The notes under the pieces were generated by a model. The model was not told the DNA's origin and did no database searches. It saw only the letters and a program-made list of their open reading frames with translations. From a virus (lineage: Duplodnaviria; Heunggongvirae; Uroviricota; Caudoviricetes), in IMG/VR virus record IMGVR_UViG_3300023371_000005: a stretch of 64,000 nucleotides of DNA. One strand, 5' to 3'. The number at the start of each line of letters is the position of its first letter. The first letter of the stretch is position 1. Positions 8,404 to 45,422 of the stretch are shown here, piece by piece. Position numbers and translations under genes: made by a program.

Positions 8404-8433
8404 AGATTATAAGAGAGAAAGGAGATATTGGTT

Positions 8434-24299: not shown

Positions 24300-24313
24300 G
24301 GAGGAATTGAAGA

Positions 24314-25735
24314 ATGGCTGTAATTAGACAAGATTTTAATGTCATGTACTTGCCTGCTGCTATTCAGAGAAATAATCCAATTCCTCTGGATAGTACTGCC
24401 TTATGGTATGACTATGATTTGATGGCTGCTTATGCAGCTAGTGATCCTACTGCCTATGTAGGTCAGATTTTAAGCTTGGTTGTTGATGATGTAGCTAATG
24501 CTTATATTATTACTAACTTAGCTGGAGATTTAGAAAAAGTTGGCTCTGCTGTTGTTGCTGATAACAAAACTATTGTTTTGGATAATGGCGCAGTAGCTTT
24601 CAAAGATTTTGGTAAGCGTTATTATAAATATGACGCAGAAACCGAAGAATATACTTTACAGGAAGTTGATGAAAACCATCCTTGGATTGCTGGTCTAGAA
24701 CCAAAAGTAACTAGTGAAGCCGGTCAATTGGTATTAGGTTGGTTTGAGCCAAATTCAACTACATTGGAAGGTGTAAATAGTTCTTTAAGCACTTTACAGA
24801 CTTCTGTAAGTGATTTACAGGGTACTGTTGAGAGCTTGGGTATCCAGGTTTCTTTGAATGAGAAGGCTTTAGAGAATGTTTATACTAAAGAAGAGACCTT
24901 AGCTGAAATTGCTAAGGCTGGACATCTAGTATATAAAAAAGTTGATAGTTTAGATGACATTCAGGCGGATATTGATAATGAAGATGCTAATGTTTCTAAT
25001 ACTATTTACTTAGTTCCTGTTTTAGAAGGCTTAGTAAATGACGTATATGATGAATATATGGTTATTGATGGTGGGATTGAAAGATTAGGTTCTTGGGAAG
25101 TTAATCTTGATAATTATGCCACCAAGGATGATCTTGATGGAAAAGTTGATAAAGTTGATGGCTATGGACTAATGTCTACAGCTCAGACTGCTAAATTAGC
25201 TACCATTGAAGAAGGCGCTCAAAAGAACGTTATCAATGAAGTTAGTGATGAGTTTGAAATTACTGATGGTAAGTTAAAACTTATCAGCTTACCTGATACT
25301 GCTAATATTGCAAATCATACAACTATTTTATCTTTACAGTCTGGTATTGACTCTAAAGTCACTATTGTCCCAGGCAAGAGCTTAGTTGATGATACTCTAA
25401 TTGCAAAGTTAGAGGCAATGAATGCAGAGGGCGAGAAAAATGTTATCAATGCGGTTGATGAAAATGAATTAGCAATTGATGAAAACCGCACTTTATCTAT
25501 TGTTTCCGTAAGTGGTTCTAAGATTGCTGAATTGGATTTAAATGAAGATTTTAAGAATTTGTCTAATAATGTAGATAGTTTATCTACTGACTTAGCTGCT
25601 TTAAATGCTTCTTTACAATCTTTGGATACAACTTTAACTGCTTATAAGATTGAAGTTTCTCAAACTTATTTAACTAAGTCTGAGTTTGAGGATCGTTTTG
25701 CTTGGCATGAGTTATCTGACTTTGTCACTACTTAA
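24314..25735 (+). CDS. Fiber-like structural protein, 473 aa, no TAG
   Basis: AAGGAGG RBS 7 nt upstream. Continuous ORF. TAA stop. Confidence 0.55.
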   Translation: MAVIRQDFNVMYLPAAIQRNNPIPLDSTALWYDYDLMAAYAASDPTAYVGQILSLVVDDVANAYIITNLAGDLEKVGSAVVADNKTIVLDNGAVAFKDFGKRYYKYDAETEEYTLQEVDENHPWIAGLEPKVTSEAGQLVLGWFEPNSTTLEGVNSSLSTLQTSVSDLQGTVESLGIQVSLNEKALENVYTKEETLAEIAKAGHLVYKKVDSLDDIQADIDNEDANVSNTIYLVPVLEGLVNDVYDEYMVIDGGIERLGSWEVNLDNYATKDDLDGKVDKVDGYGLMSTAQTAKLATIEEGAQKNVINEVSDEFEITDGKLKLISLPDTANIANHTTILSLQSGIDSKVTIVPGKSLVDDTLIAKLEAMNAEGEKNVINAVDENELAIDENRTLSIVSVSGSKIAELDLNEDFKNLSNNVDSLSTDLAALNASLQSLDTTLTAYKIEVSQTYLTKSEFEDRFAWHELSDFVTT

Positions 25736-25755
25736 TATAAGGAGGATTACTAATA

Positions 25756-27885: not shown

Positions 27886-27948
27886 TTCGGACAGAAAAGG
27901 ACAATAAATAAGTTGTTATTTTCAAATCCTTATGAAGGATGATTATAT

Positions 27949-27985
27949 GGAGAGGATAATATAATTATCCTCTCCATTTTTTTTA
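27949..27985 (+). terminator. Rho-independent terminator
   Basis: GGAGAGGATAAT-ata-ATTATCCTCTCC 12-bp perfect stem followed by a T-run. Confidence 0.6.
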
Positions 27986-28010
27986 TATTTGGATAGAAAG
28001 GAGAGCAACA

Positions 28011-31000
28011 ATGGTAGATCAAAAAAATGTTTTACAATCTATTGGCGCCCGTGAGACCGGCAATGTTTTTAGACCTGTAAATTGTACTGAGCAAGACATG
28101 AAGAGAAAACGTGCTATTCCAGGCTACTTATACTTCACACAAGATTCTCATAAGATTTATCAAGGCTTAGGCTCTGGTGAATACCAGATGGTCGGCGGCA
28201 GTTCTAGTATTTTCTACGGCAAATATCCTATGACCGATGATGAAAAATACGGAACTAATGTTTTCTTTACTTTCTCTATGACTGAACATATTGAAGGAGA
28301 AAATGTTCCTGCCTTAGATTCTTTGATTTTGAATATACCTGATGGCGGTTTTTACAGAGTATTAAATGTTGATGGTGACGCCATTGCTGTAGAAAGACTG
28401 GCTATGTCTGGCGGCGGTGGAGATAACACTGGTCCTGGCTCTAATCAAAAAGGTAATATTACTATTGAATATTACAATGGCGCTGACGTTGATACTAATA
28501 TCACTATCTTAAATGGTGTTGAGCATTGGATTGAGTTTACTATTACTGCAACTGATGAAGTTGGAGATATCTTAACTGAAACTGGTACCGCAAGTTGGGC
28601 TATTAATGGTAAGACTTATACTCAATCTGTAACTACTGGCTATAATAAATTCAGAGTTGATGAACTTTTACCCATGGCAAAAGATGGTAACTATACTCGT
28701 ATTAACTTGATGGTCTATATGAATACTGGCGGTATCACTGATAACTATGCTAGTAAGCAATGGAATATCCAAAAAGTTGATTTGCGTTTAGAGTGGCCTT
28801 TCACTTATTCTGAAGATGAATATCGTAAAGATTCAACCTTTACTTTAGTATTCAAACCTTTTGGTGGTATTAATTGTACCGCTCATATTACTTTTGACAA
28901 TGGTTCTACTCTAGGACAAGATTACTTCGAGGAAGATATTCCTGCTAATCGCGCAAACGGTAATGAATTTACTACTCAAGCAATGAAGAGTCTGTCTTAT
29001 GGTGAGCATACTTGTTCTATTTATTTGGATGCCACTATCAATGAAGATACTGGAAAGCCAATTACTGTTAGAACACAAGAAATTGTTCATAGAATCACTT
29101 TCACCGAAGGTGGTACTTCTACAATTTTAACCGTCCCATTTGATCAAAAGACTGCTACTCAATATGACACTATTGAGATTCCATTCTTAGTTTATGACCC
29201 AGATACAACTGAATGTAGTGTTACTTTCTCTGTTAATGATAACGTAATTTCTACTCGTAGCTACAACAGAGATAAGCAATCTATTCCTTACACAATTACC
29301 ACTCATGGTACTATTAAGTTAGCTTTAGAGTCTACTAATGGTGATACTAAGAGAGAATTCAATATCACTGTTGAACCTTTGGATTTGAACAGAGAAGAAG
29401 TTAGTGGTGCAGCTTTTAGCTTAAAAGCAATTAATTTCTCTGGTAATGATGAAGTTATTAACTGGGTTGGCGGTAGTGAAACTAAGCCTGTAAGATTGAA
29501 CTTCTCTGATAATTTTGACTGGCGTAATGGCGGTCTAAAATATGAAGTTCTTGCAGATGGAAGCATTGAAAAGTTTATCTGTGTGCGCCAGGGTACTTGG
29601 ATGGAAATTGACTATAAGTTATTTGAAAATTTCAAAACTGGTACTACCGGTGGTAAGAACTTTAAGTTCTGCTTCAAGGCAGCCAACTGTTATGATTATG
29701 AAGCTCCAGTTTTAAGCTGTATCCATTATAATTATAACGAAATTGAATTGACTGAAGATACTTATAGAACTAATAAGTATTATATCCTTTCTGGCTCTGA
29801 TTATATTATTTCTAGAAATCCATTTGATGAAACTGCTACTTATTTTGAGAAAGTAAGAGTCGCTGAAATTGGTCTAGAATTTGATGCTCAGAAAGCAACT
29901 TTCTCTTCTGCTACTTATCCTAATTTCGCAACTCAGTATTGTGAAAACTCTTATATTGAAGTTGAAACTGAAATTTGGCCCAATGTAGGAGATAGACAGC
30001 AAGGTAGTAAAACCGTTTATGGTGATCGCTACTTAATGATTTGGGTTGATGGTGTTCCTGCAGGTGCTAAGCCTTACAGCCAAAACATGGCTTTACAGCA
30101 AAATGATGCTCAAACCATTCGCATTGGTTCTGATTCTTGTGACGTCTATGTATATACCGCAAAAGCATATGAACGTAGATTAACAAATGATGAACATTTA
30201 AATAACTTCGTTATGGATGCTCCTAGCGTTAATAAGATGCTAGAGCGCCATCGCCGCAATGATATTATTGACTCCAGTACCGGCGAAATTTCTTATGAGC
30301 TTTTGGTGCAGAAAAATCCTGGATGCCATGCTTATTTGTATGATATTCCAGAATTAACTACTAATAAAGAAGATAAGATTGATGGCTGTACTTATTATGA
30401 GTTGATTAATGAATATGATAATTTAGGTAAGCCATTTATGAGAGCAGATAAAGTTAGAACTTATGTTCAGGGCACTTCTTCTGCCGCTTATGGTGTTGCC
30501 GCATTTAACTTACGTTCTGATTTTACTAAAAAAGGTAAAATTTATGATAAGAATGGTAATGAAATCCCTGGATGGAGACCTTCTGATGAAGATGAATATA
30601 TTGACATTGCTTGTACTAAAGTTAATGTTGCTTCTTGTGAAAATGCCAATAACGTTGTAAACGCAGAATGGTATAACAGATTCCAGCCTTACTGGGATGC
30701 TCACAGAAGAAAAGGTACTCGTTATGACAGTGATGGTAATTTATTATACAATCCTATGCGTGACTGTATGAAATTCCACTCTGGCGTTGTCTTCTTGAGA
30801 GACCACAATACACAATTCAAATATTTAGATGACAATGGAGATCCTAAGAGTGAAATCTATTTGGAGTCCAATGCATTTATCAACCCAACTAACCCTGATT
30901 GGGAAGCAAAATATGCCGCAGAACCTTATTTTAAGATGTATTCTATCGGCAATATGGGTAATGATAAGAAGAATTTGAATGTTTTCCATGATACTACCAA

Positions 31001-34000
31001 TCCACGTGCGGCCTGTGTCGAAGTTCTAGATAACCAGAACGCAGAACACTGGATGACTATTTTCAATGAAAAAGCTTTTGAAAAAGAAGTTGTAGGTCAG
31101 GACGAAGAAGGTAAAGATATTACCAAGGGTCCATACTATGAGTTCCGTTATGGTCTTGTAGAAAATGAAGACTTGTTAGAAAATGAGCAGGGCATTACCG
31201 TAGAACAACAAGAACAAGATTTCTTGAGACTGGCTGAATGGTTCGCAATGAATGATCCAAGTCCATATGATGAGTTGTCTCACCCCAATGGATATACTGG
31301 TGAAGAATTGCCTGAACCTGTAACCTTTACTGATGATTTTGTGTTTGAAGGCTTCGATCCTCCTGGATACGAAGGCCAGCCAAATCCAACTGAAATTAGT
31401 CTAAAGGGTCAGAAAATTAGTCGTTACAAAGGTACTTATACCCACGACACTAAAGATTATCGTATCGCTAAAATGTTGTATGAATGTGAAGATTACTTGG
31501 TTATGGATTCTGTTGTATTCCATTATTTGTATATCTCTCGTCACACCATGGTTGATAACGTTGCTAAGAACACTTTCTGGAGCACCGAAGATGGATTCCA
31601 CTGGGATCTAACTAAAAACTACGATAATGATACTTCTGATGGTAATGATAATACTGGTAACTTGACTTATACATATGGTCTAGAAGTCGGTGATATTAAC
31701 CCCAATGGTAAAGATGTTTTCAATGCTTCTCCTTCCGTATGGTTGAATTTCATTCATGAATTAAGAGAGGCTCAGCAATATCTATTCCAGGAGTTGAGTA
31801 AGAAGGGTGCTTGGGATGCTGATGATTATCTAGCTGAATTTAAGGCTCACCAAGATATTATTCCCGAAATTTGCTGGATTCAGGACTATGAAAGAAAATA
31901 TATTCGTCCTAGACGCTTAGGTCTTGATGAAACTACTTTCTTAAGTCGTCTAGAGGGTGGTCGTAAGACTCACCAGAGAAAGCAATATGAAACTTATCAA
32001 GAGTTCTATCTGAACTCTAAATATGTTGCAAGTACTGCTTTCACAGACAGTGCTGGTATCGAATTCCGTTTCAATAAAGACGGTGATTTCGCATTGCAAC
32101 CAACTGACGTTCTTCCCATGACTTTCTATATTGATTGTTATGGCACTATCCACTTAGGTGGTCAGAAGAGAACTTCTACTCGTATTAAGAGAGGTAATTA
32201 TTATAATGCCCCTGTCGGTGAATTGATTTCTGCCGCAAGCGATGCTACTTGCTATATTTATGGTGCAAGTATGATTCAAACAATTAAAGACTTGTATAAG
32301 TTGTATCCTGGTTATGCCAAGATGACTAATGCAAGTAAATTGCGTGAATTTGAAATCGGTTCTGATATAGAAGGTTATTATAACCCTCGTTTGAGCGAAG
32401 TTAGCGTTGGTACTAACGCAATGTTACAAAAATTCCAGGCTAGAAATGTCGGTAACCCCGAGAATATTTCTATCCTAAGCTTAACTAACGCAACTCAGCT
32501 AGAAACTGTTCTAATGAGTGGTAGTGCTTTCAAAGAATTGTCTTTGGCTCCTAACGCAACTACCAAAGAACTTGAATTAAACCCATTAGCAATCTTCTCT
32601 GCAACAAATCTTCTTGATTTGGAAACTGTTAGATTGGATGATGGAATTTATGATTCAATTCAGCAGGCTTACATTAATAACTGCCCTGGCTTAGATGTTT
32701 ACACTTATCGCTTCGCAAAAGCTCCTTCTTTAACTAACTATCAATTTACCGATGTAAATTGGGTTATTAATGATGAGACTGAAGATGATTTCGTCTTAGA
32801 TGCCGATAATAATGTTGTAGCCTTTGCCGCTCTTGAAAACTTAACTGATAATAATACTGGTCCTAGACTTGGTACTACTACTGTTACTGCTTTAAGCGGT
32901 ACATTAACAGTTGATAAGGCTTGCGCTATTGATGAATATAAGATTTACAAAACTTATGCAAAAACTTATCCAAACTTGATTTTCAAGTACACTGATAAAG
33001 TTGGTGCTAATTTCAACCCCGCAGTTGAATTAATTTTCTTAACCAATGAAAATTCTGAGGAACAATATTACAGAGTATTGGGTAGCGGTGATACCTCTGG
33101 AGAAAATGCTCACAGTATTGCTTATCTAACTTCCGCACAAGGTCCTTTAGGTTTTGCTATTGGTACTCCTCACAAGGAATCTACTTCTTCTCATGATTTT
33201 GCATTTACTGGCTATTGGATTCATAAAAAGGATAATGTAATTACTAAGTATTACAATACAAAAGATTTGCCAGATGGAGCAGTTCCAGAAGCATCTGCAA
33301 TCTCCTTTGAAGATATTACTCCAACTGAAAGTATGACATTCTATCCAGAGTATATTACTACTGATAGAGAGTACAAAGTTCGCTTCTGCGACTGGGCTGG
33401 TAATATTATCTTACAGAATGGTGAAGAGTATTGGCCTGTTCCTTATGGTAAGACTTACGTCGAGGCCGCAGGTCCAATGACTAATTTCCACTATCGTGAT
33501 AATACAGGTCTACAAGATCATATGAGATGGGCATTCCAAGGTTGGTCTAAGAACCAATACAAGGATAAGGAAATTAAGAATCCTGTTTATGAAGATTTGG
33601 CAACAATGGTAGTTACTAATGATGTGACTTTACATGGTCACTATTTAACTGAAGACTGCCGTGATGTCGCTTCTAAATTGGAATATTTCAATTTCAGCGA
33701 GCGTGGTAAGATCTCAATCGCTGAGGAATATCGTGAAACTTTACAAGGTAAAATTACTTTACCTAGTGAATATGATGGTATCCCTCTAACTCAGGTAAAA
33801 GACTTTAAGAATATGGCTCGTGTTACTCACGTATTCTTCTTGAGAACCAATACTTCTTATACAAGTATTTTCCAACAAGCCTTCGAAGGAGCTTTAGCTT
33901 TGCAATATGTTGATTTGCCTATTGGAATTACTCATATCGGAACATATGCTTTCAAGAGTATCAAGAGTTTAACTACTGTTGATATGAAATCTAATGTTGA

Positions 34001-34481
34001 AGAAATTGGTAGCCAGGCATTCTATGAAACCAACATTAACTTAACTTCTTTACCTGCTAAACTAAAACTTCTAAAGTCTGGTGCATTCATGGATTGTCGT
34101 GAATTGACTTTGTCTGCTTTACCAGCTTCTTTAGAGACTATCGAAAGCCACGTATTTTTCTTATGTCCTAAGATTAGTATTAATCAATTGGGTGGCGGTG
34201 ACGCTAAATTGAGTTATATCGGTATGCAAGCTTTTGGCGGCGGTTCTGGCGCTAATGGCACTGTTACTGATATTTACTTCGGCTCAACGGTTAACTTCAT
34301 TGGTGAAAACGCCTTCAAGGGATATGGTAAAAATGGTCGTGTAAGTACTATTAGCTTTGCTAAACAAAGTGTTGAAGATTATCTAATGACTGATACAGCC
34401 TACCATACTAGTATTTCTACTATGGGATTTGATAATCCTCCTTACACTGAAGTTTGGGATTGGAAAGGAGAAGGTTCTTAA
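28011..34481 (+). CDS. Giant virion-associated protein, 2156 aa, with C-terminal BspA-type leucine-rich repeats. No TAG.
   Basis: RBS AAAGGAGAG. Continuous ORF ending at TAA. The last roughly 250 aa carry repeated motifs typical of BspA/TpLRR: xIGxxAFxxCxxLTSLxLPxxLxxIxxxAF. Confidence 0.6.
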   Translation: MVDQKNVLQSIGARETGNVFRPVNCTEQDMKRKRAIPGYLYFTQDSHKIYQGLGSGEYQMVGGSSSIFYGKYPMTDDEKYGTNVFFTFSMTEHIEGENVPALDSLILNIPDGGFYRVLNVDGDAIAVERLAMSGGGGDNTGPGSNQKGNITIEYYNGADVDTNITILNGVEHWIEFTITATDEVGDILTETGTASWAINGKTYTQSVTTGYNKFRVDELLPMAKDGNYTRINLMVYMNTGGITDNYASKQWNIQKVDLRLEWPFTYSEDEYRKDSTFTLVFKPFGGINCTAHITFDNGSTLGQDYFEEDIPANRANGNEFTTQAMKSLSYGEHTCSIYLDATINEDTGKPITVRTQEIVHRITFTEGGTSTILTVPFDQKTATQYDTIEIPFLVYDPDTTECSVTFSVNDNVISTRSYNRDKQSIPYTITTHGTIKLALESTNGDTKREFNITVEPLDLNREEVSGAAFSLKAINFSGNDEVINWVGGSETKPVRLNFSDNFDWRNGGLKYEVLADGSIEKFICVRQGTWMEIDYKLFENFKTGTTGGKNFKFCFKAANCYDYEAPVLSCIHYNYNEIELTEDTYRTNKYYILSGSDYIISRNPFDETATYFEKVRVAEIGLEFDAQKATFSSATYPNFATQYCENSYIEVETEIWPNVGDRQQGSKTVYGDRYLMIWVDGVPAGAKPYSQNMALQQNDAQTIRIGSDSCDVYVYTAKAYERRLTNDEHLNNFVMDAPSVNKMLERHRRNDIIDSSTGEISYELLVQKNPGCHAYLYDIPELTTNKEDKIDGCTYYELINEYDNLGKPFMRADKVRTYVQGTSSAAYGVAAFNLRSDFTKKGKIYDKNGNEIPGWRPSDEDEYIDIACTKVNVASCENANNVVNAEWYNRFQPYWDAHRRKGTRYDSDGNLLYNPMRDCMKFHSGVVFLRDHNTQFKYLDDNGDPKSEIYLESNAFINPTNPDWEAKYAAEPYFKMYSIGNMGNDKKNLNVFHDTTNPRAACVEVLDNQNAEHWMTIFNEKAFEKEVVGQDEEGKDITKGPYYEFRYGLVENEDLLENEQGITVEQQEQDFLRLAEWFAMNDPSPYDELSHPNGYTGEELPEPVTFTDDFVFEGFDPPGYEGQPNPTEISLKGQKISRYKGTYTHDTKDYRIAKMLYECEDYLVMDSVVFHYLYISRHTMVDNVAKNTFWSTEDGFHWDLTKNYDNDTSDGNDNTGNLTYTYGLEVGDINPNGKDVFNASPSVWLNFIHELREAQQYLFQELSKKGAWDADDYLAEFKAHQDIIPEICWIQDYERKYIRPRRLGLDETTFLSRLEGGRKTHQRKQYETYQEFYLNSKYVASTAFTDSAGIEFRFNKDGDFALQPTDVLPMTFYIDCYGTIHLGGQKRTSTRIKRGNYYNAPVGELISAASDATCYIYGASMIQTIKDLYKLYPGYAKMTNASKLREFEIGSDIEGYYNPRLSEVSVGTNAMLQKFQARNVGNPENISILSLTNATQLETVLMSGSAFKELSLAPNATTKELELNPLAIFSATNLLDLETVRLDDGIYDSIQQAYINNCPGLDVYTYRFAKAPSLTNYQFTDVNWVINDETEDDFVLDADNNVVAFAALENLTDNNTGPRLGTTTVTALSGTLTVDKACAIDEYKIYKTYAKTYPNLIFKYTDKVGANFNPAVELIFLTNENSEEQYYRVLGSGDTSGENAHSIAYLTSAQGPLGFAIGTPHKESTSSHDFAFTGYWIHKKDNVITKYYNTKDLPDGAVPEASAISFEDITPTESMTFYPEYITTDREYKVRFCDWAGNIILQNGEEYWPVPYGKTYVEAAGPMTNFHYRDNTGLQDHMRWAFQGWSKNQYKDKEIKNPVYEDLATMVVTNDVTLHGHYLTEDCRDVASKLEYFNFSERGKISIAEEYRETLQGKITLPSEYDGIPLTQVKDFKNMARVTHVFFLRTNTSYTSIFQQAFEGALALQYVDLPIGITHIGTYAFKSIKSLTTVDMKSNVEEIGSQAFYETNINLTSLPAKLKLLKSGAFMDCRELTLSALPASLETIESHVFFLCPKISINQLGGGDAKLSYIGMQAFGGGSGANGTVTDIYFGSTVNFIGENAFKGYGKNGRVSTISFAKQSVEDYLMTDTAYHTSISTMGFDNPPYTEVWDWKGEGS

Positions 34482-34693
34482 TGACTAAAGATAGAAAATA
34501 CAGATACCTTGGCCGCAATGGTATTTTAGATACTAAGGTCCTTCTAGATGGTATCAATCATATCAATATCGTAACTATCAATGCTGATCCCGGCAAGATT
34601 TTAACTAATGGTGAGCGTACTCAGTACAGCGTCACTGTTGAAGAGGCCGAGGAACATAAGTGGAGAGAAATTACGGACAATACCAAAAAATAA
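34481..34693 (+). CDS. Small hypothetical protein, about 70 aa. ATG overlaps the upstream TAA.
   Basis: ATG 34481 is in frame with track ORF 34454..34693. AAGGAGAAGG precedes it. Confidence 0.4.
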   Translation: MTKDRKYRYLGRNGILDTKVLLDGINHINIVTINADPGKILTNGERTQYSVTVEEAEEHKWREITDNTKK

Positions 34694-34711
34694 GGTTATT
34701 TGATTTTTCAG

Positions 34712-34743
34712 TTCTAGGGAAGGGAAATTCCTTCCCTAGAACA
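34712..34743 (+). other. Perfect 13-bp hairpin GTTCTAGGGAAGG / CCTTCCCTAGAAC without a T-run
   Basis: Inverted repeat seen directly. No U-tract on either strand, so not an intrinsic terminator. Possible RNA stability or processing element. Confidence 0.4.
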
Positions 34744-34769
34744 ATATTATAAAGAAAGGAAGATATAAC

Positions 34770-36782
34770 GTGATTACAGTCTATAATAAAGATTATAAAG
34801 ACCAATATACCGTTCTATTCCAAGACGCATATAACGTTTTATTGGATATGCAGGCTAAAGATCCTCTTGGTGTAAAGATTAATCAGTCTGTTTTGGATAA
34901 AGGCAAAATCAGTTCTCTTGAAGAGTATTTTGCTCATATTGGTTATTTAGCAGATTATCACACTGAAAATATTAGAAATAATCCACCTTCTAATGTTGCA
35001 TATCAAAACTCTGCTAAGTTCTTGATGCTTCCTATGGATGAAAAATACGATGTCAAGTCTGGCTGTTTTTACATTGACCTAAATACTAGAAATATTCAGG
35101 TTCCTGATATTTATAGTAAATATGGTGTTAGTGTTACTGGTGATCAGTTAGCCGAGACTTTGATGTTTAAGGTTCCTCGCTATTTCGATTATACTGACTT
35201 GGCTTCTACTGAAATTTATGTTCAGTGGACTAACCCAGCAGGAGACGAAGGTGCTTCTCGTATTGTCTTAGTTGACTTTGAAGCAGAAGAAGGTTATCTA
35301 TTATTTGGTTGGCCTTTGACCAGTAAGGTTACTGTTGAAGGTAAAAATCCTTTGAAGTTCTCTGTTCGTTTCTTCGTAAGAAATGAAGAGAAAGAAATTC
35401 AGTACAGCTTAAATACTTTGGCTAGTTCTGTTATGATTAAGCAAGCTCTATATACTCATTTCAATGCTGACCTAGACATTGATGATCCATCTTTGTTGTT
35501 TGCGGCCGCAGTTGAAAATGGCGTTGACTCCAACATGACTCTACCTCAGATTCCTGTCTTCTTCTATGATTGGAAATTGGGTAATGACGAAGGAAAAGCT
35601 TTCTTAAAGAATGATGCAATTAAGCTATATGCTAGCGGTGCCACTGCTGATGCAGGTCAGTTGTGCTACAAGTGGTATTATACTCCTCGATTCATCGAAA
35701 ATAATGTCGCTGTAACTAAAGATACTGAAGAAGTTTTCAAGGCTTACGCTGATGTAGATACTATCTTCAAGCCCACAAATGATACTGAAAAAGAAGCTGG
35801 CAAGACTTATTATGTTGAAGAAATCGAAGCTGAAACTGGCAATCAGATTTATACTGTTTTCCTAGGCGATGCTTTTGAAGAGCCAGAAGAGGGAGAAGCT
35901 GCTCCTGTTTATTATGAGCAGGTAAGTGTTTATACCATTTTGGCTGTTGATGATGATGCTGAGGATTTGGGTGCTTCTACTGCGCTAGCACCTAATAAGA
36001 GATATTGGCCTCACGTCACCGGTGAATACAAGCTAACTTTGAACAATCAAGTTGGTAGTAGCAAATCTGCAGAGAGCGTTGATTCTTTGAAGTGCGTAAT
36101 TCCTTGTGTTGAAAAAGTTGAGTTCACCGCAGATTTACCTAAGAACAAAGTTCTATCTACTATTGGCGAAGGCGAAGAGACTGTTAGCCAGGCTATTTTA
36201 ACTGTTACTGTTGATGCAAATGACGGTGCTGAAAAGAGCTATGTATGGTATGAAGCTGCTTCTTCTGACGCTGAATATGTTGAAGTTCCCAATGCTTCTA
36301 ATGCTAGTATGACTGCTACTCAGCCAGGCTGGTATAAAGTTAAGGCTATCGGTACTTTGAACAGAGAGAGTATGTGGAAAGAAAGTTCTGAATGTAAGGT
36401 TACTTATCCTGCTGAAGCTCCTGAAATCGTCAAGTATCTAGTTGATGGTATCGAGTATCCTATTACAGATGATGACCCAACTTTAGAGAATGTTCCTGGC
36501 TTGAATACTCCTATTACCTTCAAGATTGAAATTGAAGAAATGAATGAGTTCCAGACTGACGGTGTCACTTACAAGTGGTTCCGCAATACTCCTAACCAGA
36601 ATGGTACTCCTATTAAGGATTCTGATCTAGATATTATTAGTGTAAATGGCAGTGAAATTACTGTTAAGCTATTAGCTAATAATGACTTGCCTGTTAATAT
36701 TGCCTTCTATTACTGTGAAATCACTAATACTCTAGCAGGAGAAGAAAAGAAAACTACTTCTAAGGTATTCCAGATTTCTTAA
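34770..36782 (+). CDS. Hypothetical structural protein, 670 aa. GTG start, no TAG.
   Basis: RBS AAAGGAAG. Continuous ORF. TAA stop. Confidence 0.5.
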   Translation: MITVYNKDYKDQYTVLFQDAYNVLLDMQAKDPLGVKINQSVLDKGKISSLEEYFAHIGYLADYHTENIRNNPPSNVAYQNSAKFLMLPMDEKYDVKSGCFYIDLNTRNIQVPDIYSKYGVSVTGDQLAETLMFKVPRYFDYTDLASTEIYVQWTNPAGDEGASRIVLVDFEAEEGYLLFGWPLTSKVTVEGKNPLKFSVRFFVRNEEKEIQYSLNTLASSVMIKQALYTHFNADLDIDDPSLLFAAAVENGVDSNMTLPQIPVFFYDWKLGNDEGKAFLKNDAIKLYASGATADAGQLCYKWYYTPRFIENNVAVTKDTEEVFKAYADVDTIFKPTNDTEKEAGKTYYVEEIEAETGNQIYTVFLGDAFEEPEEGEAAPVYYEQVSVYTILAVDDDAEDLGASTALAPNKRYWPHVTGEYKLTLNNQVGSSKSAESVDSLKCVIPCVEKVEFTADLPKNKVLSTIGEGEETVSQAILTVTVDANDGAEKSYVWYEAASSDAEYVEVPNASNASMTATQPGWYKVKAIGTLNRESMWKESSECKVTYPAEAPEIVKYLVDGIEYPITDDDPTLENVPGLNTPITFKIEIEEMNEFQTDGVTYKWFRNTPNQNGTPIKDSDLDIISVNGSEITVKLLANNDLPVNIAFYYCEITNTLAGEEKKTTSKVFQIS

Positions 36783-36800
36783 TAAAGGAGGTCAATAATT

Positions 36801-37448
36801 ATGTCACAGTTAAGTCAAACTGCTATTGACAAATTATATGAAATCCAAAGAAGTAATCCTCCAAAGATGGCTTCCATTCCATATGCGGAGGATTACATTG
36901 AAGTTGATTGGCGTACTCGCTCAATTGGAGAACGTGATATCCTAAGCACTGCTCGTGACCATAAATCCGAAAATTTATACTTTATCATGGATAGATATTG
37001 GGATTATATGGACTTGTCTACCACCACCTGTGTTATTTCTTATAAGACTTATCCCGCAGACCCCCAGAAGCAAGGTGTGACTGGTTTATATGCCGTTCCA
37101 TATTACGACATTTATACTCATAAAGCTACTCCTGGCACTTTGGAAAAGGATAAGATGGTTATTCCATGGTGTATTGATGGACGAGTAACTCAAGACGAAG
37201 CAGAAGTAGAATATGCCATTCGTTTTTATCGTGTTGATGCTGATGGAAAGAAAATCCTCTATAATATCAGCACCATGCCAAATGTTGGCAAAGTCCTATA
37301 TGGACTAAACGTTCAGCCAAACGGCCTTGAAGACGCCGGAGATCTAGCTGGTGATTATGATATTGCTAGTAGTATGTATGAACATTTTACTGACGAAATC
37401 AGAAAATTAAATCAGCAAGATATTTTTTGGATTGAATTTGTTTCATAA
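36801..37448 (+). CDS. Hypothetical protein, 215 aa, no TAG
   Basis: AAAGGAGG RBS. TAA stop. Confidence 0.5.
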   Translation: MSQLSQTAIDKLYEIQRSNPPKMASIPYAEDYIEVDWRTRSIGERDILSTARDHKSENLYFIMDRYWDYMDLSTTTCVISYKTYPADPQKQGVTGLYAVPYYDIYTHKATPGTLEKDKMVIPWCIDGRVTQDEAEVEYAIRFYRVDADGKKILYNISTMPNVGKVLYGLNVQPNGLEDAGDLAGDYDIASSMYEHFTDEIRKLNQQDIFWIEFVS

Positions 37449-37599: not shown

Positions 37600-39705
37600 A
37601 TGGCAACTCTTCCACCCGATGGGATTTATAGTGGTTTTTATATTCGTTATTTTTTTGAAGGCGAAGAAATGACAGGCTACTATGGATCTAGTATGGGCAT
37701 TTATAAAAGTGGAGATCCCGTCGAAGCGACAGTTACTTCAGATTGGATTATTAATGGGCCTAATGGCGAAGCTGCTTTATGGTATTGGGATTCAAATTAT
37801 TAGAATGAAATTCAAATTGGTAGTTCATTAAGTTTTCAAGCTCATATTTATTTAGATGATGGAATCTCCTTTGGAATTATCATATATGGAAAGAGAATGG
37901 ATATCAAATTAAAGATGGGTGCGAAGACTGATCTTCCATCCAGTAAAAATAAAGGCACAGTATATTTTGCTAAAGATGGAGATAAAAACTTTGGTGAATT
38001 ATATTATGATGATGAAAATGGCAATCGAGTAAAAATTGGCGGTAGCAATATTAGCAGCGCTAAATTTAAAATTTAGTATAATTCTAGCAATATTGATTTA
38101 GTTGATGGCCTTAGATTAGATTTAACTTTTGAAGATGGAACTGTAATAGCTTCTAATTTTTTCCCTGAAGCAACAATATATAACCCTGGTTTAATGATGC
38201 CTGCCAAGAATAGTATTACAGAAATCCAATAGATGCCATTAGGATTGAAATCTTTTTATCCAGGCATTATAATTGGTACAATGCCTGCATTAGAATTAAA
38301 TAACGGTTATGCCATTGGAATTGGAGATGCTGCAGTTTTATTTGGAGATGATAGTACAGAATATAATAAAGTAGGAATAATTCAAAGTCCAGAAACTTTA
38401 ATATTAGCTACAGAGGATTAGACCGCAGTGTTTAGTGTAAGCAATTAGGATAATACTCCAGGAATAGTGGCTATGGCTGGTGATGCAAGTTTTACGCTTG
38501 CAGAAGGTTATTTTTGGACAGGTTCCTTAGGAGCTGAATCTAATTATATTCCTACTGCTTATATTGAAGAACTTCATTCCACTTCAATCAATGCAGCCCA
38601 GTTTGAAGGAGCTTTTGCTGGAGATTTAGAAGGTACAGCTAGAGATGCAACTTCTTGGACCAATGCAATTCTTTTAAATGGCACTGAAGTTAAAGGCGGA
38701 GAAACTGAAGCAATTACTACTGCTAAATGGGGTGCTGAACGCAATATCTCTATTTCTGGCACTGCCGGCACAACTGGAACTATTGTTGATGGTTCTAATG
38801 AAGATGGTTATACTCTAATCATTCCCGCAACTATGATTGGTTTCACTAGCATCACTTCTACTAATTTATTGGCAACTAACTTAGGAGCTGCTGGAGCCCC
38901 AGTTGAAGTTGCTCATTTTAAAGAAACTTATTTCCATAATCCTAATAATAATAACTATAAGCATAAGCTAACAAGTAATGCTGGTTCTGCTGATTGTGAA
39001 TTACAGCTACCTAATACTTCTGGCTTAATTGTTACTAAGGCTAGCACTACTGCGGCCGTTGGTGGTCTGAATGCACCAGTGTTTGTTGCTGCGAGCGGTG
39101 AAGTTACTGCTTGTTCTACTGTCTCTGTCGAGCATGGTGGTACTGGCGCTAACTCTTTAAGTGCTTATTCTTTATTATATGGCAATGGAACTAATGCAGT
39201 AGGACAGGTTACTCCTATGGCCGCAGGCCGTATTTTAGTATCTGGCGGTACTACTTCTGCTCCTCTATATGCTAGCCCAAGTTTAAGTTTCAGCACAGGC
39301 GCTTCTAATCCAACTATTAGTTTTGTCATTAATGGTGCTACTTATACTTCTACTAATGGCATTCAATCTGCTACTGGCGAAAATCCTGGTCTAGTTTCTA
39401 CTACTACTCAGACTTTTGCAGGAGCAAAGACTTTTACTGGAGCTGTTAATTTTAGCGCTGGTATCACAAGTACAACAGGTACATTCTCTGGACAAATCAA
39501 TGCTACAAACATCAAGTTGAGTGGTCAATTGAAGAGTCATTCCGCAGGTACTTCTTATCTAACTTTGACTGATACTAAAGCAACTGTGACTTCTCCAACT
39601 GTTTATTTAAATGGTACAACTATCGTTCTAAATTCTAGTAATTATGGTCCTACTTTACCAACTACTAATTTAGAAGAAGGTCGAATTTTCTTCTTATTGA
39701 CTTAA
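37600..39705 (+). CDS. Tail fiber protein, about 701 aa, 5 in-frame TAG, with the conserved phage-fiber HGGTGA motif
   Basis: Track ORFs 37600..37803, 38233..38421 and 38467..39705 are all in frame 1. TAGs at 37801, about 38074, about 38230, 38419 and about 38446. Motif VEHGGTGANSLSAYSLLYG. AAAAGGAGG RBS. Confidence 0.6.
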
Positions 39706-41933: not shown

Positions 41934-42341
41934 ATGGACTGGATGGTTATGTTATATCAAATTTTTGAACTTTGCGTTATTCCTCTCTTGGGTGTATTGA
42001 CTATGTACTTAGTTCAATTCATTAAAATGAAGAGCCAAGAAATCGCAGATAAGACTGATAGTGAATTAGCAGATAAGTACATTCAAATGCTTGCTGATAC
42101 TATCACTACTTGCGTTATCGCAACTAATCAGACTTATGTTGAATCTTTGAAGAAGCAAGGTAAGTTTGATGCAGAAGCTCAGAAGGAAGCTTTCAATTTG
42201 ACTTATAATGCAGTTATGTCTGTATTAACTGATGAAGCTAAGCATTATTTGGCTTCCATTTATGGCGACTTGACCGCCTACATTACTAGTCGTATTGAGG
42301 CTGAGGTTAATGTAAGTAAGATTGTTCCTGTTACTGAGTAA
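41934..42341 (+). CDS. Small membrane protein with one N-terminal TM helix, 135 aa. Possible holin-like protein.
   Basis: AAGGGGGA RBS. Hydrophobic segment VIPLLGVLTMYLVQFI. TAA stop. Confidence 0.4.
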   Translation: MDWMVMLYQIFELCVIPLLGVLTMYLVQFIKMKSQEIADKTDSELADKYIQMLADTITTCVIATNQTYVESLKKQGKFDAEAQKEAFNLTYNAVMSVLTDEAKHYLASIYGDLTAYITSRIEAEVNVSKIVPVTE

Positions 42342-42351
42342 TTGCGGAGAT

Positions 42352-42394
42352 ACCCGAAAAATACCTAAAAAGTATTTTTCGGGTATTTTTTTTT
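42352..42394 (+). terminator. Strong rho-independent terminator ending the structural operon
   Basis: ACCCGAAAAATAC-ctaaaaa-GTATTTTTCGGGT 13-bp perfect stem followed by a T9 run. Confidence 0.7.
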
Positions 42395-42436
42395 GTCATT
42401 CGCAGGACCTCAAAAAGTTATGTCCCGGTATTCTTA

Positions 42437-42541
42437 CGGTCCATTTTTGGTTATTTTTCATTCCAGTCGCGGTCCATTTTCGGTTAGGGTTCGGTCCTCG
42501 TTTGGACAAATTAGGGTAATTTTTCGGTCCTAATTTTCATA
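42437..42541 (+). repeat. Array of 4 direct repeats sharing the core CGGTCC. Core starts at 42437, 42470, 42492 and 42525, i.e. spacings of 33, 22 and 33 nt.
   Basis: Units: CGGTCCATTTTTGGTTA, CGGTCCATTTTCGGTTA, CGGTCCTCGTTTGGACA, CGGTCCTAATTTTCATA. Located in a 250-nt non-coding region between a terminator and the next gene. Confidence 0.6.
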
Positions 42542-42595
42542 AAGCTATGAGGGGATTGGATAAAATATTTTTTGTATGGAGAGGAGACCTTACAT

Positions 42596-43030
42596 ATGTA
42601 CTCAAACTATAATTATTATCCACAACAACCCTAGCAAGTCGCCCAATAGCAACCAGTGTACCAACCATTGTCTTACTTACGACAGGCGCCGCCGCAAGCA
42701 GGACTGAAAGGACGCTTGGTAGCATCATTGGAAGAGGCCCGTGCAACCTCTATTGACTTTGATGGTTCTGTATTCTACTTCCCAGATTTAGCGAACAGAC
42801 GAATCTACACAAAACAAATAAATATGGATGGCACCGCATCACTGTGTGTGTATGAATTAAGGGAAATGCCCGTTTAGAGAGAAGAGAGCGGTTCTGTTCC
42901 ATCCGTTGAGAAATTTGTAACGAGAGAAGAGTTTGAGCAGGTCCTGGCGCAACTACAAATGCTCCAGAAGCCAACCGAGCCGGCCGTATCTGCCCCCGCA
43001 AAAGAAAAAGTAGAATTAATGTCATTCTAA
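42596..43030 (+). CDS. Gln-rich hypothetical protein, about 144 aa, 3 in-frame TAG. Two of them fall inside the poly-Q run.
   Basis: ATG 42596 preceded by GGAGAGGAG. Reads MYSNYNYYPQQP-TAG-QVAQ-TAG-QPVYQ. Third TAG at 42875. TAA 43028-43030. Confidence 0.55.
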
Positions 43031-43040
43031 GGAGGTATGA

Positions 43041-43295
43041 ATGATGTATCCAGTAAACCCAAATAAATTAATCCAAATGATTAAATCCGGGCAAAATCCT
43101 CAGCAATTGATGTTATCAATTTTGAAAGGACAAGCCTATGATAATCCCCTCGGAAAAAATCTCCTAAATTTAGCTCAATCTGGTCGCACTGTCGAATTAG
43201 AGAAAGTAATTCGCAACCTTTACGCCCAGTAGGGCGGTCAAAATTTCGACCAGGAGTTCGAAGCCTTTAAACGTGCATTAGGCTACAACACTTAA
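43041..43295 (+). CDS. Small hypothetical protein, about 84 aa, one in-frame TAG (43230)
   Basis: TAAGGAGG RBS. ORF continues through the TAG to TAA 43293-43295. Confidence 0.5.
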
Positions 43296-43316
43296 AATTT
43301 AAGGAGGAAAAAAATT

Positions 43317-44033
43317 ATGTTCAATGGAAAAGGTTATAATTTATCTGATATCGCTGCTGTAACCCGTGGAAGTGGTACTGGTTTCGGTGGAGATGGCGAC
43401 GGCGCATGGTGGCTGTTACTGTTATTCCTGTTTGCGGGATGGGGTAATGGTGGCTATGGCGGCGGCCTTGGCGCAGGTAACGCTCGCGACGCTGTTTCTT
43501 ATGGCTTTGATATCAACAATCTAGAAAATGGAATCCGTGGACTAGAGCATGGTCTATGCGATGGTTTCTATGACATGAACACTTCTTTGCTAACTGGTTT
43601 TGGTAATGTTACTATGGGTAATATGCAGAACACTAACGCCATTATGGGCCGTTTGTGTGATATGTCCGCAGAGCAAGCTGCTTGTTGCTGCGAAACTCAG
43701 CGCTTGATTGAGAGAGGTTTGTGCGAAGTCAACTATAATATCTTGACTCAATCTAACGCAACTAATACTAATATTGCCAATGCCGCGAGAGATATTATTG
43801 AAAACAATAATAATGGTGTTCGCTCTATCTTAGACTTCTTGACTCAGGATAAGATTGCTACTTTGCAGGCTGAAAATCAGGCTTTGCGCTTGACCGCTTC
43901 TCAGCAAGCTCAGAACGCTTTCTTGATCGACCAGTTAGGAACTAAGGCTCCTATTCCTGCATACATGGTAGCTAATCCATATGCTAGCTATGGTTGTGGT
44001 ATGAACTACTATGCTGGATGTGGCTGCAACTAA
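43317..44033 (+). CDS. Gly-rich membrane protein with a Cys-rich C-terminus, 238 aa
   Basis: AAGGAGGA RBS. GGDGDGAWWLLLLFLFAGWGNGGYGGGLGAGN TM segment flanked by Gly runs. CCCE and YGCGMNYYAGCGCN motifs. Confidence 0.5.
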   Translation: MFNGKGYNLSDIAAVTRGSGTGFGGDGDGAWWLLLLFLFAGWGNGGYGGGLGAGNARDAVSYGFDINNLENGIRGLEHGLCDGFYDMNTSLLTGFGNVTMGNMQNTNAIMGRLCDMSAEQAACCCETQRLIERGLCEVNYNILTQSNATNTNIANAARDIIENNNNGVRSILDFLTQDKIATLQAENQALRLTASQQAQNAFLIDQLGTKAPIPAYMVANPYASYGCGMNYYAGCGCN

Positions 44034-44052
44034 TATCTAAGGAGGAAAGTAT

Positions 44053-44475
44053 ATGGAAATTATTGCTAATGCTGTTCAAACAGTTCCCGCAAATCAGAAT
44101 GTTTATTTCACTGATTCTGTTACTTCTGGAAATTATTCTATCGAGCATCGTGATGGTAGTGGATTGGTGACTCTTCGCGGAGTCACCAATACTCAGTGCC
44201 GCGCCCGTTTTAGAGTACATTTCGGCGCAAATGTCGCGATTGCAGAAGGTGGCACCGTCGGACCAATTTCCTTAGCTATCTCTTTGGATGGTGAAGCGGT
44301 TCCAGCTACAATTATGACTGTCACCCCTGCCGCAGTTGGAGATTTCTTCAATGTGAGCGCATCTATCTTTATTGATATTCCAAAAGGATGCTGCTCTCAT
44401 GTGGCCGTGAAGAATATTTCTACTCAGCCAATTGATGTACAAAATGCAAATCTAATTGCTGAACGTTCTGCGTAA
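44053..44475 (+). CDS. Hypothetical beta-rich protein, 140 aa. Loosely C1q/TNF or BclA C-terminal-like.
   Basis: AAGGAGG RBS. TAA stop. Confidence 0.4.
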   Translation: MEIIANAVQTVPANQNVYFTDSVTSGNYSIEHRDGSGLVTLRGVTNTQCRARFRVHFGANVAIAEGGTVGPISLAISLDGEAVPATIMTVTPAAVGDFFNVSASIFIDIPKGCCSHVAVKNISTQPIDVQNANLIAERSA

Positions 44476-44486
44476 GGAGGGATAGT

Positions 44487-45068
44487 ATGGACCACGAAAG
44501 ATTAAAACACATGAAAGAAACTTTAATGTGTGCTGTTGAAGTACAATTATGTGATTTGGGTGAAGTAGATACTAAAGAGCTTGGAGAAGCTATTGATATG
44601 ATTAAAGATTTAGAAGAGGCAATCTACTATTGCACCGTTACAGAAGCTATGAACAACTCTTCACACGAAATGGAGTTTGAAATGAAAAAAGGCGGCCATC
44701 ACCAGTAGGAAAATGGTGACAGCCGCATGTATTATGACAGAAATCGTAGAAGTGATGGTACATTCTATGCTGACAATGATAATTCTTCTTCTTCTGGAAT
44801 GAATAGTTCTAATGGAAGAAATTATTACGATGACCCAGGTATGTGGCGCGATGAGCGCGAAGGCCGCAGTTATAATAGTCGTAGAATGTATATGGAAGCC
44901 AAGGATATGAAACGAGATAAAGCTACTCAATTGCGTGAGTTAGAAAAGTATATGCAAGAGCTATCTCTGGATATTACCGAAATGATTGCGGATGCTTCTC
45001 CAGAAGAAAAAGCATATCTTGAAAAGAAGATAACCGCATTGGCTTCTAAAATTGGTCAAATGAAATGA
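44487..45068 (+). CDS. Hypothetical charged protein, about 193 aa, one in-frame TAG (44706). TGA stop followed one codon later by TAA.
   Basis: Track ORFs 44487..44708 and 44727..45068 are in the same frame. AAGGAGGG RBS. Confidence 0.5.
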
Positions 45069-45376
45069 TTATAAATGGCGTGCGCTGGCGGGTCCGGTTG
45101 GTCTCGCCAGCCCATCCAATGCTACTTACGCCTTGGAGAACTCACGCTCTTGGAGTTTGTGATAAAGTCACATAGACTATATGTATAGACAAGACTCTTT
45201 CCCCTCAACAACTAAAAGAAGTCTTATGTCATGAATTAGTTCATGCTTTTATGTTTAGCTATGCTGTGGATTTATCATATGATGAAGAGGAAATGGTAGC
45301 AGAGCTTATGACTGAATATGGAGAAGATATATTAGAACGGACAAACGCGATTTATAATGGTATAAAAATGAAATAA
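45065..45376 (+). CDS. Small HExxH metallopeptidase-like protein (ImmA/IrrE or SprT-like fold), 104 aa, one in-frame TAG
   Basis: Frame 2 reading: MIINGVRWRVRLVSPAHPMLLTPWRTHALGVCDKVT-TAG-TICIDKTLSPQQLKEVLCHELVHAFMFSYAVD... The motif I.ID..L....LKEVLCHELVHAF follows the ImmA-type pattern. Start ATG overlaps the end of the upstream gene. TAA 45374-45376. Confidence 0.45.
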
Positions 45377-45419
45377 GGGTCGATTATGAATAATCATAAT
45401 CGACCCCTTATTTTTTTTT
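45377..45419. terminator. Bidirectional rho-independent terminator at the convergence of the + and - arms
   Basis: GGGTCGATTATGA-ataa-TCATAATCGACCC 13-bp perfect stem. T-run on the + side and a T-rich tract on the - side. Confidence 0.7.
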
Positions 45420-45422
45420 GGT

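Follow-up and report, generated by a model that had tools for sequence, protein, structure and literature searches.

What is the function of a non-coding DNA segment that repeats a short sequence in step with the turns of the double helix, just ahead of a phage accessory cassette? The question arises in a 64,000-nucleotide (nt) stretch of DNA, here called the window, which belongs to the Caudoviricetes virus record IMGVR_UViG_3300023371_000005 of IMG/VR. An array of CGGTCC repeats at positions 42437–42541 of the window lies between the terminator of a holin gene and P3, the first gene of a cassette referred to below as P3–P8. The array is real, statistically unambiguous, and evolutionarily conserved. 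It follows an 11-base pair (bp) lattice that is unique in the window, its phase is conserved among relatives, and it stays linked to the cassette. We consider it probable that the array is a helically phased, multi-site protein-binding platform that regulates the promoter region of the P3–P8 cassette in cis.

The original prediction, made from the sequence alone, described four 17-nt direct repeats sharing the core CGGTCC. Their plus-strand cores begin at 42437, 42470, 42492, and 42525, with the predicted start spacings of 33, 22, and 33 nt, and they are 4 of just 11 CGGTCC copies in the 64 kilobases (kb), where shuffled sequences contained a mean of 5.2. The repeats read CGGTCCATTTTTGGTTA, CGGTCCATTTTCGGTTA, CGGTCCTCGTTTGGACA, and CGGTCCTAATTTTCATA; the first two agree at 16 of 17 positions. 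These sites are genuine, but the unit had to be redefined: it is an 11-bp lattice whose conserved core is the palindromic pentamer GGWCC rather than CGGTCC, the flanking C varying between strains.

A fifth core, GGACC, is located at 42405, which gives spacings of 33, 33, 22, and 33 bp for the five cores. Pentamers taken every 11 bp from this position are GGACC, AGTTA, GGTAT, GGTCC, GGTTA, ATTCC, GGTCC, GGTTA, GGTCC, GGACA, GGTAA, and GGTCC, so that GG begins 10 of the 12 nodes of the lattice (42405–42530). Elsewhere in the window, the best period-11 lattice of this kind reached ~6 or less on the plus strand and 6 on the minus strand. Scans at other periods within the range of 9 to 13 gave 4 to 7, the values at periods 9 and 12 reflecting codon periodicity, and 20 shuffled sequences gave 4 to 6. 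Tandem Repeats Finder, run at low stringency, likewise returned a period of 11 with the unit CGGTCCATTTT and a unit identity of just 51%. Individual units consist of a pentamer and a T tract (GGTCC+ATTTTT, GGTTA+TTTTTC, GGTAA+TTTTTC, and the like). The features of the array are as follows, with nodes numbered from the proximal end:

42405–42541, unstranded: full 11.0-bp lattice of GG pentamers, nodes k11 to k0 plus k−1, holding all four 17-nt repeats
42405–42409, unstranded: strong node k11, GGACC, the inverted form of the palindromic core; kept in strain variants, 11 bp closer in the relative L058
42438–42442, unstranded: strong node k8, GGTCC, core of repeat 1 (42437–42453); homologous to the GGTATTCTTCAGGTCC element of most relatives
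42471–42475, unstranded: strong node k5, GGTCC, core of repeat 2 (42470–42486); missing in L058 through an 11-bp deletion
42493–42497, unstranded: strong node k3, GGTCC, core of repeat 3 (42492–42508); the most widely kept GGTCC node (GGTCC-N6-GGACA)
42526–42530, unstranded: proximal node k0, GGTCC, core of repeat 4 (42525–42541)
42427–42519, unstranded: weak nodes GGTAT (42427), GGTTA (42449), ATTCC (42460), GGTTA (42482), GGACA (42504), and GGTAA (42515)

The GGWCC pentamer itself is neither enriched nor avoided in the 64 kb (49 copies compared to ~46 expected from our own base-composition arithmetic). The 44 copies outside the array are nearly all coding and share no extended motif or flanks. 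Since GGWCC occurs elsewhere at background frequency, the cluster is local and there is no wider motif family within the 64 kb. The original prediction had named both a lack of genome-wide enrichment of the core and a lack of conservation in related phages as observations that would speak against it; the motif is not enriched, and this is outweighed by its conservation in relatives.

Relatives of the array were collected by protein-anchored and DNA-pattern searches of metagenomes, which yielded 47 distinct upstream regions including that of the window, plus one region from a genome bin (L159). No close relatives were found in the annotated phage collection, where the searches returned only four short weak matches. 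All regions have in common a ribosome-binding site, a conserved block of ~100 nt (consensus ..ttGGaCaa..gtTAATTTTcCcaTCCTAATTTTtAc...ATGaGGGGatGGAtAag..AATTTTTTGTATGGA.AGGAGACC), and the same first gene, P3. The gene located 5′ of the array varies (holin, tail-fibre-like, and others) and is always closed by a strong terminator. Constancy of the downstream block and gene combined with variation of the upstream gene implies that the element belongs to the cassette and not to the preceding operon. In the window, the array is flanked by the following features:

42346–42394, plus strand: intrinsic terminator of the holin gene (hairpin 42346–42390 with a 19-pair stem, then a nine-T run to 42394)
42501–42541, plus strand: rigid conserved proximal block TTTGGACAA...TAATTTTTC-GGTCC-TAATTTTCA, which in relatives reads TGGACA-N17-CATCCT
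42559–42566, plus strand: best −10-like hexamers, GATAAA (42559–42564) and TAAAAT (42561–42566), paired with TTCATA (42536–42541), score 4.6
42573–42594, plus strand: invariant small hairpin UGUAUGG/CCUUACA predicted by RNAalifold just before the P3 start, with the Shine-Dalgarno sequence AGAGGAGA in its loop

Exact GGWCC copies 5′ of the proximal block number from 0 (12 of the 47 sequences) to 5 (the window). Measured from a fixed reference in the proximal block, these copies lie at offsets of 19/20, 29–31, 41/42, 50–52, 63, 74, 85, 96, and 107 nt, with one at 39, which corresponds to 33, 44, 55, 66, 77, 88, 99, 110, or 121 bp from the proximal node. On the grid (8 modulo 11 from the reference) are 34 of the 53 exact copies, and the remainder are off by 1 to 2 nt. 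The same phase is seen when GGW triplets are counted in the 125 nt upstream in the 47 regions: 124 fall at phase 0, 46 and 28 at ±1, and 4 to 20 at each other phase. In the genome-bin region L159, nodes occur at 33, 55, and 121 bp, and weak nodes of the GGTTA type lie between them. Most relatives also carry an ATACCT motif on the lattice and a 16-bp palindrome, ATACCTAAACAGGTAT, whose halves are 11 bp apart and which stays on the grid even 154 to 198 bp from the proximal node. This palindrome is embedded in the terminator loop in sequences of the window type and stands separately, 3′ of the terminator, where the terminator differs. The proximal node k0 is CATCC or CGTCC in most relatives, with TCC alone as its conserved part.

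While the phase is kept, the sites turn over. At least 12 different occupancy patterns were distinguished, all respecting one grid. Indels among relatives come in 11-bp steps, and the 94% identical L058 differs from the window by exactly one 11-bp unit. GGACC and GGTCC replace each other at the same node in several lineages, as do ATACC and GGTAT; such in-place swaps are what one would expect if the site is symmetric and lies on duplex DNA. In five variants at the strain level, none of the five cores is lost, even as the flanking C of CGGTCC and bases near it differ. When the lattice scan was applied to the 1.29 megabases (Mb) of fetched loci, lower-GC phage loci scored at least 8 only at the homologous array. 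The sole other score of 8 came from an unrelated GC-rich contig (L077), which we read as chance. Butyrivibrio virus Ceridwen and Dulem virus 33, two distant phages with the cassette, have different first genes, and no array was found in them.

The strict helical period, the indifference to orientation of the palindrome, and the phase lock to the proximal block together argue for recognition of duplex DNA from one side of the helix. An oligomeric DNA-binding protein would contact successive turns on this side, and the bound species is probably a two-fold symmetric dimer centered on the W of each pentamer. Binding would be cooperative, with ~130 bp bent or wrapped. A period of 11.0 rather than 10.5 bp would impose a gently superhelical, underwound path. 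By our calculation, this difference amounts over 121 bp to about half a turn on relaxed B-DNA; because of this drift, a long-range complex would need underwound or left-handedly wrapped DNA. Neighboring strong nodes at 22 or 33 bp are ~35 to 50 degrees apart by the same calculation. The complex may help or hinder RNA polymerase at a core promoter that falls short of a good sigma-A promoter, and how strong the response is would depend on the number of strong nodes (0 to 5 in relatives). We lean toward activation over repression, since the window has no usable −35/−10 pair and the in-frame TAG codons of the cassette point to late expression. A weak sigma-A promoter is also what is expected of a factor-dependent one. 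The putative protein-binding sites, phased within a regulated promoter region, that the original prediction had proposed gain strong support from the relatives, in which the phase and the linkage to the cassette are kept.

Several points weigh against a protein-binding platform. We infer the promoter status of the region itself from its sequence. Common ancestry of the relatives makes the phase counts non-independent, and 11-bp slippage could, without selection, generate or maintain some periodicity. The 12 relatives without any exact GGWCC mean either that the strong nodes can be dispensed with or that recognition follows a less strict rule. Neither the window nor the portions of relatives that were fetched contain a further array, which would leave a dedicated regulator with one visible target only. 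Last, no DNA-binding domain was recognizable in the proteins of the cassette or the window with Pfam, PHROGs, and NCBIfam, and the low-confidence model of P3 matches no DNA-binding fold.

The promoter candidates were compared among relatives. The original prediction had noted a strong terminator upstream, no good −35 hexamer nearby, a weak TAAAAT box, and a gene starting at 42596, all of which agree with our analysis: a promoter scan returned no plus-strand promoter of the sigma-70 type between the terminator and the ATG (42400–42600), and TAAAAT occupies 42561–42566. Our own weight-matrix scan for sigma-A −35/−10 pairs in the 47 sequences gave three candidate positions, none common to all. 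Candidate (a), TGGACA-N17-CATCCT, coincides with k2 and k0 and is among the top three sigma-A-like pairs in ~20 of the 47 sequences. It is good in one relative, L114 (TGGACA-17-TATCCT), whereas the window reads GGTCCT, without the critical A at position 2. Candidate (b), TTTTCC-17-TACTAT or TATAAT, ends 46 to 48 nt before the ATG in ~12 relatives; the window has AGCTAT. Candidate (c), TTCATA-17-GATAAA or TTCATA-19-TAAAAT, ends 29 to 31 nt before the ATG and is found in the window and its near relatives. We infer from sequence that GATAAA or TAAAAT may act as the −10 element. Under candidate (c), the center of the proximal GGTCC would lie near −45 and the other cores near −78, −100, −133, and −166; under candidate (a), node k3 would lie near −43. 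Either placement resembles that of an activator reaching the −35 region.

The proximal block (42501–42541) is probably the core promoter or a nucleation region. GGTCC at k0 goes together with the highest numbers of upstream nodes and the best downstream −10-like hexamer, a pattern that would fit a lineage relying more on the factor. An nhmmer search revealed no second copy of the block in the window; the best other matches had E values of 0.2 to 1.6 and no common motif by eye. One of these weak similarities (E value of 0.22) is at 27873–27956, in the intergenic region ahead of a gene for a 2156-amino acid (aa) protein; it reads TCGGACAGAAAAGGACAATAAAT...TTATTTTCAAATCC, is followed by a terminator-like hairpin, and may be due to chance. 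Other sigma factors and regulators were considered by eye. For sigma-54, a conserved TGGACA or TGGGCG is present, yet −12 reads CATT, GGAT, or GGGT, with no GC. Neither extracytoplasmic function (ECF), TcdR-like (TTTACA), or sporulation sigma factors nor SpoIIID (TAGGACAAGC-like in relative L115), Spo0A, or CodY gave a consistent fit.

The terminator stem is itself composed of 11-bp units, with ATACC at 42350 and 42361 and GTAT at 42372 and 42383. Two direct and two inverted units akin to those of the array can be recognized in it, and the hairpin sequence is kept across relatives as ATACC[C/T]GAAA..AT.CT.AAAA.GTAT.TTTC.GGTAT followed by a T run. At the other end, all pairs of the predicted Shine-Dalgarno hairpin are invariant, and covariation therefore gives no evidence for it. 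An upstream ATG in CTATGAGG was discarded as an alternative start; it is in frame in some relatives and out of frame in the window. Small open reading frames over the array (42322–42519, 42393–42533, and, on the minus strand, 42396–42509) were also rejected: they are not conserved, because the indels of relatives measure 11 bp or 1 bp.

How does the array compare to known systems? Direct repeats 5′ of phage late promoters are binding sites of the activators RinA, LtrC, and ArpU; in these Ltr systems, activation requires two to four short direct repeats, and every activator recognizes only its own (PMC3753634). The Ltr superfamily (RinA/LtrC/ArpU) and the Alt late promoter of TP901-1 resemble our case in that they are found in Firmicutes phages and have non-coding repeats 5′ of a factor-dependent promoter. 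Ltr repeats are located just 3′ of the activator gene and before terS, whereas the array is located 3′ of a holin or tail-fibre-like gene and before an accessory cassette. The array also differs by its up to 12 nodes, its strict 11-bp grid over 130 to 200 bp, and its palindromic core. No Ltr-like domain was found, and whereas Ltr-dependent promoters drive terS and the morphogenesis/lysis operon, the downstream P3–P8 proteins are not terminases.

The parC site of plasmid R1, bound by ParR, consists of 11-bp iterons that overlap the operon promoter and form a cooperative curved or superhelical complex. The parH site bound by ParG of TP228 is a related array of the ribbon-helix-helix class (PMC3130281). 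Similar to parC and parH, our array has short degenerate boxes on an ~11-bp or otherwise regular grid, A/T-rich spacers, a length of ~100 bp, and an extension into the conserved proximal block. No match to ParA, ParM, TubZ, or ribbon-helix-helix proteins was found for P3–P8 in Pfam, NCBIfam, or PHROGs. In the absence of a partition NTPase or adaptor downstream, a function in segregation is unlikely.

AbrB sites resemble the array in being pairs or multiples of pentamers that contain GG (TGGNA), in tandem or inverted orientation with A/T spacers of 4 to 5, and AbrB footprints are long, often >40 bp, which is ascribed to several tetramers (PMC3025583). In contrast, the strong nodes of the array are GGTCC or GGACC, with a fifth base other than A; its nodes include (C/T)GGTCC, GGTTA, and GGACA, and its spacer is 6 nt. 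Searches also turned up no protein of the AbrB type. P3 was at one point suspected to be an AbrB-like swapped hairpin because of its GRLVASLEEAR segment and a predicted strand-helix-strand-strand order. This idea was dropped: the AlphaFold model is poor (predicted local distance difference test, pLDDT, of 53.7), and neither a profile search of the PDB nor Foldseek against the PDB gave a significant or AbrB-like match.

How tightly Pho boxes, SARP heptamers, and ArcA direct repeats are bound depends on how many repeats there are and how good they are. These are 11-bp-spaced sites of winged-helix regulators that extend into the −35 region (PMC5930380, PMC4173790, and PMC11825685). The array has the same 11-bp period and reaches the −35 position of a promoter without a good −35 element. 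Pho, SARP, and ArcA sites are asymmetric and arranged head to tail, while the array is based on a 5-bp palindrome able to flip, is longer, and has strong nodes that are usually 22 or 33 bp apart. The defining contexts or motifs of the compared families are not present here, and none of them can be claimed as the home of the array.

One bolder version of the protein-binding reading deserves mention, though we regard it as doubtful: an undescribed filament- or wrap-forming protein of the phage or its clostridial host would build a left-handed nucleoprotein superhelix on the lattice, with node number acting as an evolvable gain control. The lattice is coherent up to ~200 bp in relatives and runs into the terminator hairpin in sequences of the window type. 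If this version is true, such a superhelix occupies the DNA from the lysis operon's end to a cassette that thousands of gut phages carry. In a variant of this version, GGWCC would also serve as a restriction-modification target of the AvaII/SinI type, and node occupancy could be readable through DNA methylation.

Whichever protein is involved, the array is a short fragment with a clear rule (an 11-bp grid and a GGWCC core) and with natural variants that have 0 to 5 strong nodes. It may be used as bait for the regulator and to reveal at what time recoded gut phages of Clostridia express the cassette. It also provides a clean natural case of helical-phase conservation combined with site turnover. 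The array would gain in importance if the binding protein belonged to a novel type or if the lattice identified a regulon elsewhere in the genome.

Among explanations other than a protein-binding platform, intrinsic curvature fares best, though we judge it unlikely. According to this explanation, phased T tracts and G/C pentamers bend the DNA in the manner of a UP element and stimulate RNA polymerase without a dedicated protein. We calculated curvature by the wedge model, in which the segment 42451–42580 came fourth among the loci of the window (end-to-end/contour ratio of 0.796, near the 0.1 percentile). Yet curvature is not conserved: the median ratio of relatives at the corresponding position was 0.92 compared to a background of 0.96, and only 16 of 46 fell in the top 5%. 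Upstream spacers of typical relatives (L036, for instance) do not consist of T tracts, and the GG nodes are still on the grid. Curvature and protein binding are compatible, and curvature may assist rather than be the conserved property. Equally or more curved segments of the window are at 6471–6660, 19571–19710, and 44141–44280, all coding.

Neutral slippage, in which duplications and deletions of 11, 22, or 33 bp in a non-coding spacer leave periodicity without function, is in our view improbable. It would account for the degenerate 11-bp tandem repeat reported by Tandem Repeats Finder, the single-unit difference between the window and L058, the near identity of repeats 1 and 2, and the occupancy range of 0 to 5, and it is a plausible source of the 11-bp indels. 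It does not explain why, at so low a unit identity, the pentamer is retained and the spacer is not, or why the grid persists across lineages whose spacers cannot be aligned. Slippage cannot produce orientation flips at fixed nodes. All cores are kept in the five strain variants while their flanks change, and the grid is in register with the proximal block and the ATACCT palindrome up to 198 bp away.

We consider it highly improbable that the array serves as iterons of a replication origin, a parC-type centromere, or a pac site instead of controlling transcription. Helically phased 17-nt repeats at spacings of 22 and 33 bp are reminiscent of plasmid iterons, an 11-bp iteron period is a hallmark of R1 parC, and the sole perfect DnaA box of the window, TTATCCACA, is at 42616–42624, 90 bp 3′ of the array. 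However, this box encodes the conserved YYPQ of P3 and is probably kept in relatives for coding reasons, and DnaA boxes with one mismatch are unclustered and at chance level (21 compared to 20.7). The cumulative GC skew has its maximum, not its minimum, at ~45–46 kb, where transcription converges, which is terminus-like and not origin-like. No Rep, ParA, ParM, TubZ, or terminase gene adjoins the array, the replication genes are 3 to 20 kb away on the other strand, and the array moves with the cassette into different genome contexts. The iteron-like sites that the original prediction had offered as an alternative are thus disfavored by the nearby skew maximum, the lack of a Rep-like gene, and the chance-level DnaA boxes. 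Its exclusion of a CRISPR array was correct: the repeats are degenerate, 5 to 17 nt long, and 5 to 16 nt apart, whereas CRISPR arrays need identical repeats of at least 23 nt with unique spacers that are similarly long.

Least probable of all is an RNA-level element (a structured leader, a riboswitch-like or antitermination signal, or sites of an RNA-binding protein): despite the unusual conservation of the ~100 nt before the ATG, the location 3′ of a terminator, and the invariant Shine-Dalgarno hairpin, RNAalifold found no conserved pairing over the array, folding z-scores were +0.8 to −2.3 on both strands, Rfam 15 gave nothing at gathering score or at E ≤ 1, a tentative CCAUCC/GGAUGG stem (alignment by eye) is disrupted in several relatives with no compensating change, a period of 11 nt makes no sense at the RNA level, and GGACC/GGUCC and AUACC/GGUAU swap at fixed nodes without being equivalent in RNA.

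The cassette downstream of the array is composed of the following genes:

42596–43030, plus strand: P3, first cassette gene, 144 aa, phrog_21718, with a TAA stop at 43028–43030
43041–45376, plus strand: P4 (84 aa), P5 (238 aa), P6 (140 aa, phrog_20016), P7 (193 aa), and P8 (103 aa)

P3 starts at 42596, as predicted, and reads through three in-frame TAG codons (42632, 42647, and 42875), taken as Gln, to its TAA stop; the database protein P0001 is 100% identical to it over 144 aa. The in-frame TAGs suggest, in line with published work on recoded phages, late translation of the cassette, after suppression has set in. P3 has 4248 detectable homologs among public metagenome proteins. P5 has the look of a membrane protein, Gly-rich in its N-terminal part and Cys-rich at its C terminus; P6 (140 aa) is conserved and contains a CC motif; and P8 is an M78/ImmA-like peptidase for which no partner repressor is visible. 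Homologs of the cassette are located between lysis genes and an integrase in Dulem virus 33 and between lysis genes and an XRE regulator with an antirepressor in Butyrivibrio virus Ceridwen. The slot between lysis and integrase or lysogeny-control genes, which cassette homologs occupy in temperate phages, is the usual place of independently expressed accessory genes.

The window belongs to a large phage genome in which TAG is decoded as an amino acid (Gln). With TAG taken as sense, 30–8312 is a single frame of 2760 codons with 27 in-frame TAGs, and several further plus-strand genes carry 1 to 9; the plus-strand frames 8428–14013, 14467–17313, 17313–20210, and 20592–22748 have 5 to 9 each. There are no in-frame TAGs in 22812–37448 or in most minus-strand replication genes. 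No transfer RNA genes, including those of the suppressor type, were found in the 64 kb. Plus-strand genes continue to 45376 and include tail-fibre-like proteins with Listeria-Bacteroides repeats and the holin gene (41934–42341), which matches phrog_13712. Minus-strand genes from 45423 on encode dUTPase, anaerobic ribonucleotide reductase, DNA polymerase III alpha, helicases, and primase. The convergent units meet at 45377–45422 in a hairpin, AAGGGTCGATTATGAATAATCATAATCGACCCCTT, followed by a T run, and this point coincides with the cumulative GC-skew maximum.

The 10 kb past the right edge of the window (L179, 1–10000) encode replication and nucleotide-metabolism proteins, SPbeta-like YorF and YorH domains, AAA_24, dihydrofolate reductase, thymidylate synthase, a GIY-YIG endonuclease, a NAD-dependent DNA ligase, and a gyrase A-like protein, and contain no GGWCC cluster. 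The identical P3 protein is found on at least 22 assembled contigs, the longest of which, ERZ27248370:k141_2695036, measures 202,962 bp. The phage, ~200 kb long and reading TAG as glutamine, has been assembled from many samples. Relatives were binned with Clostridia (Acutalibacteraceae, Oscillospiraceae, and Eubacterium), and one homolog is in Butyrivibrio virus Ceridwen, which together point to a clostridial host. Strains with an identical P3 differ in the tail-fibre region (L173, 4657–5322, and L175, 4887–5546, compared to ~37600–39705 of the window). Some of them have a gene of ~220 aa with weak matches of the Hint/intein type and different adjoining fibre genes. These differences in sequence indicate mosaic receptor-binding modules.

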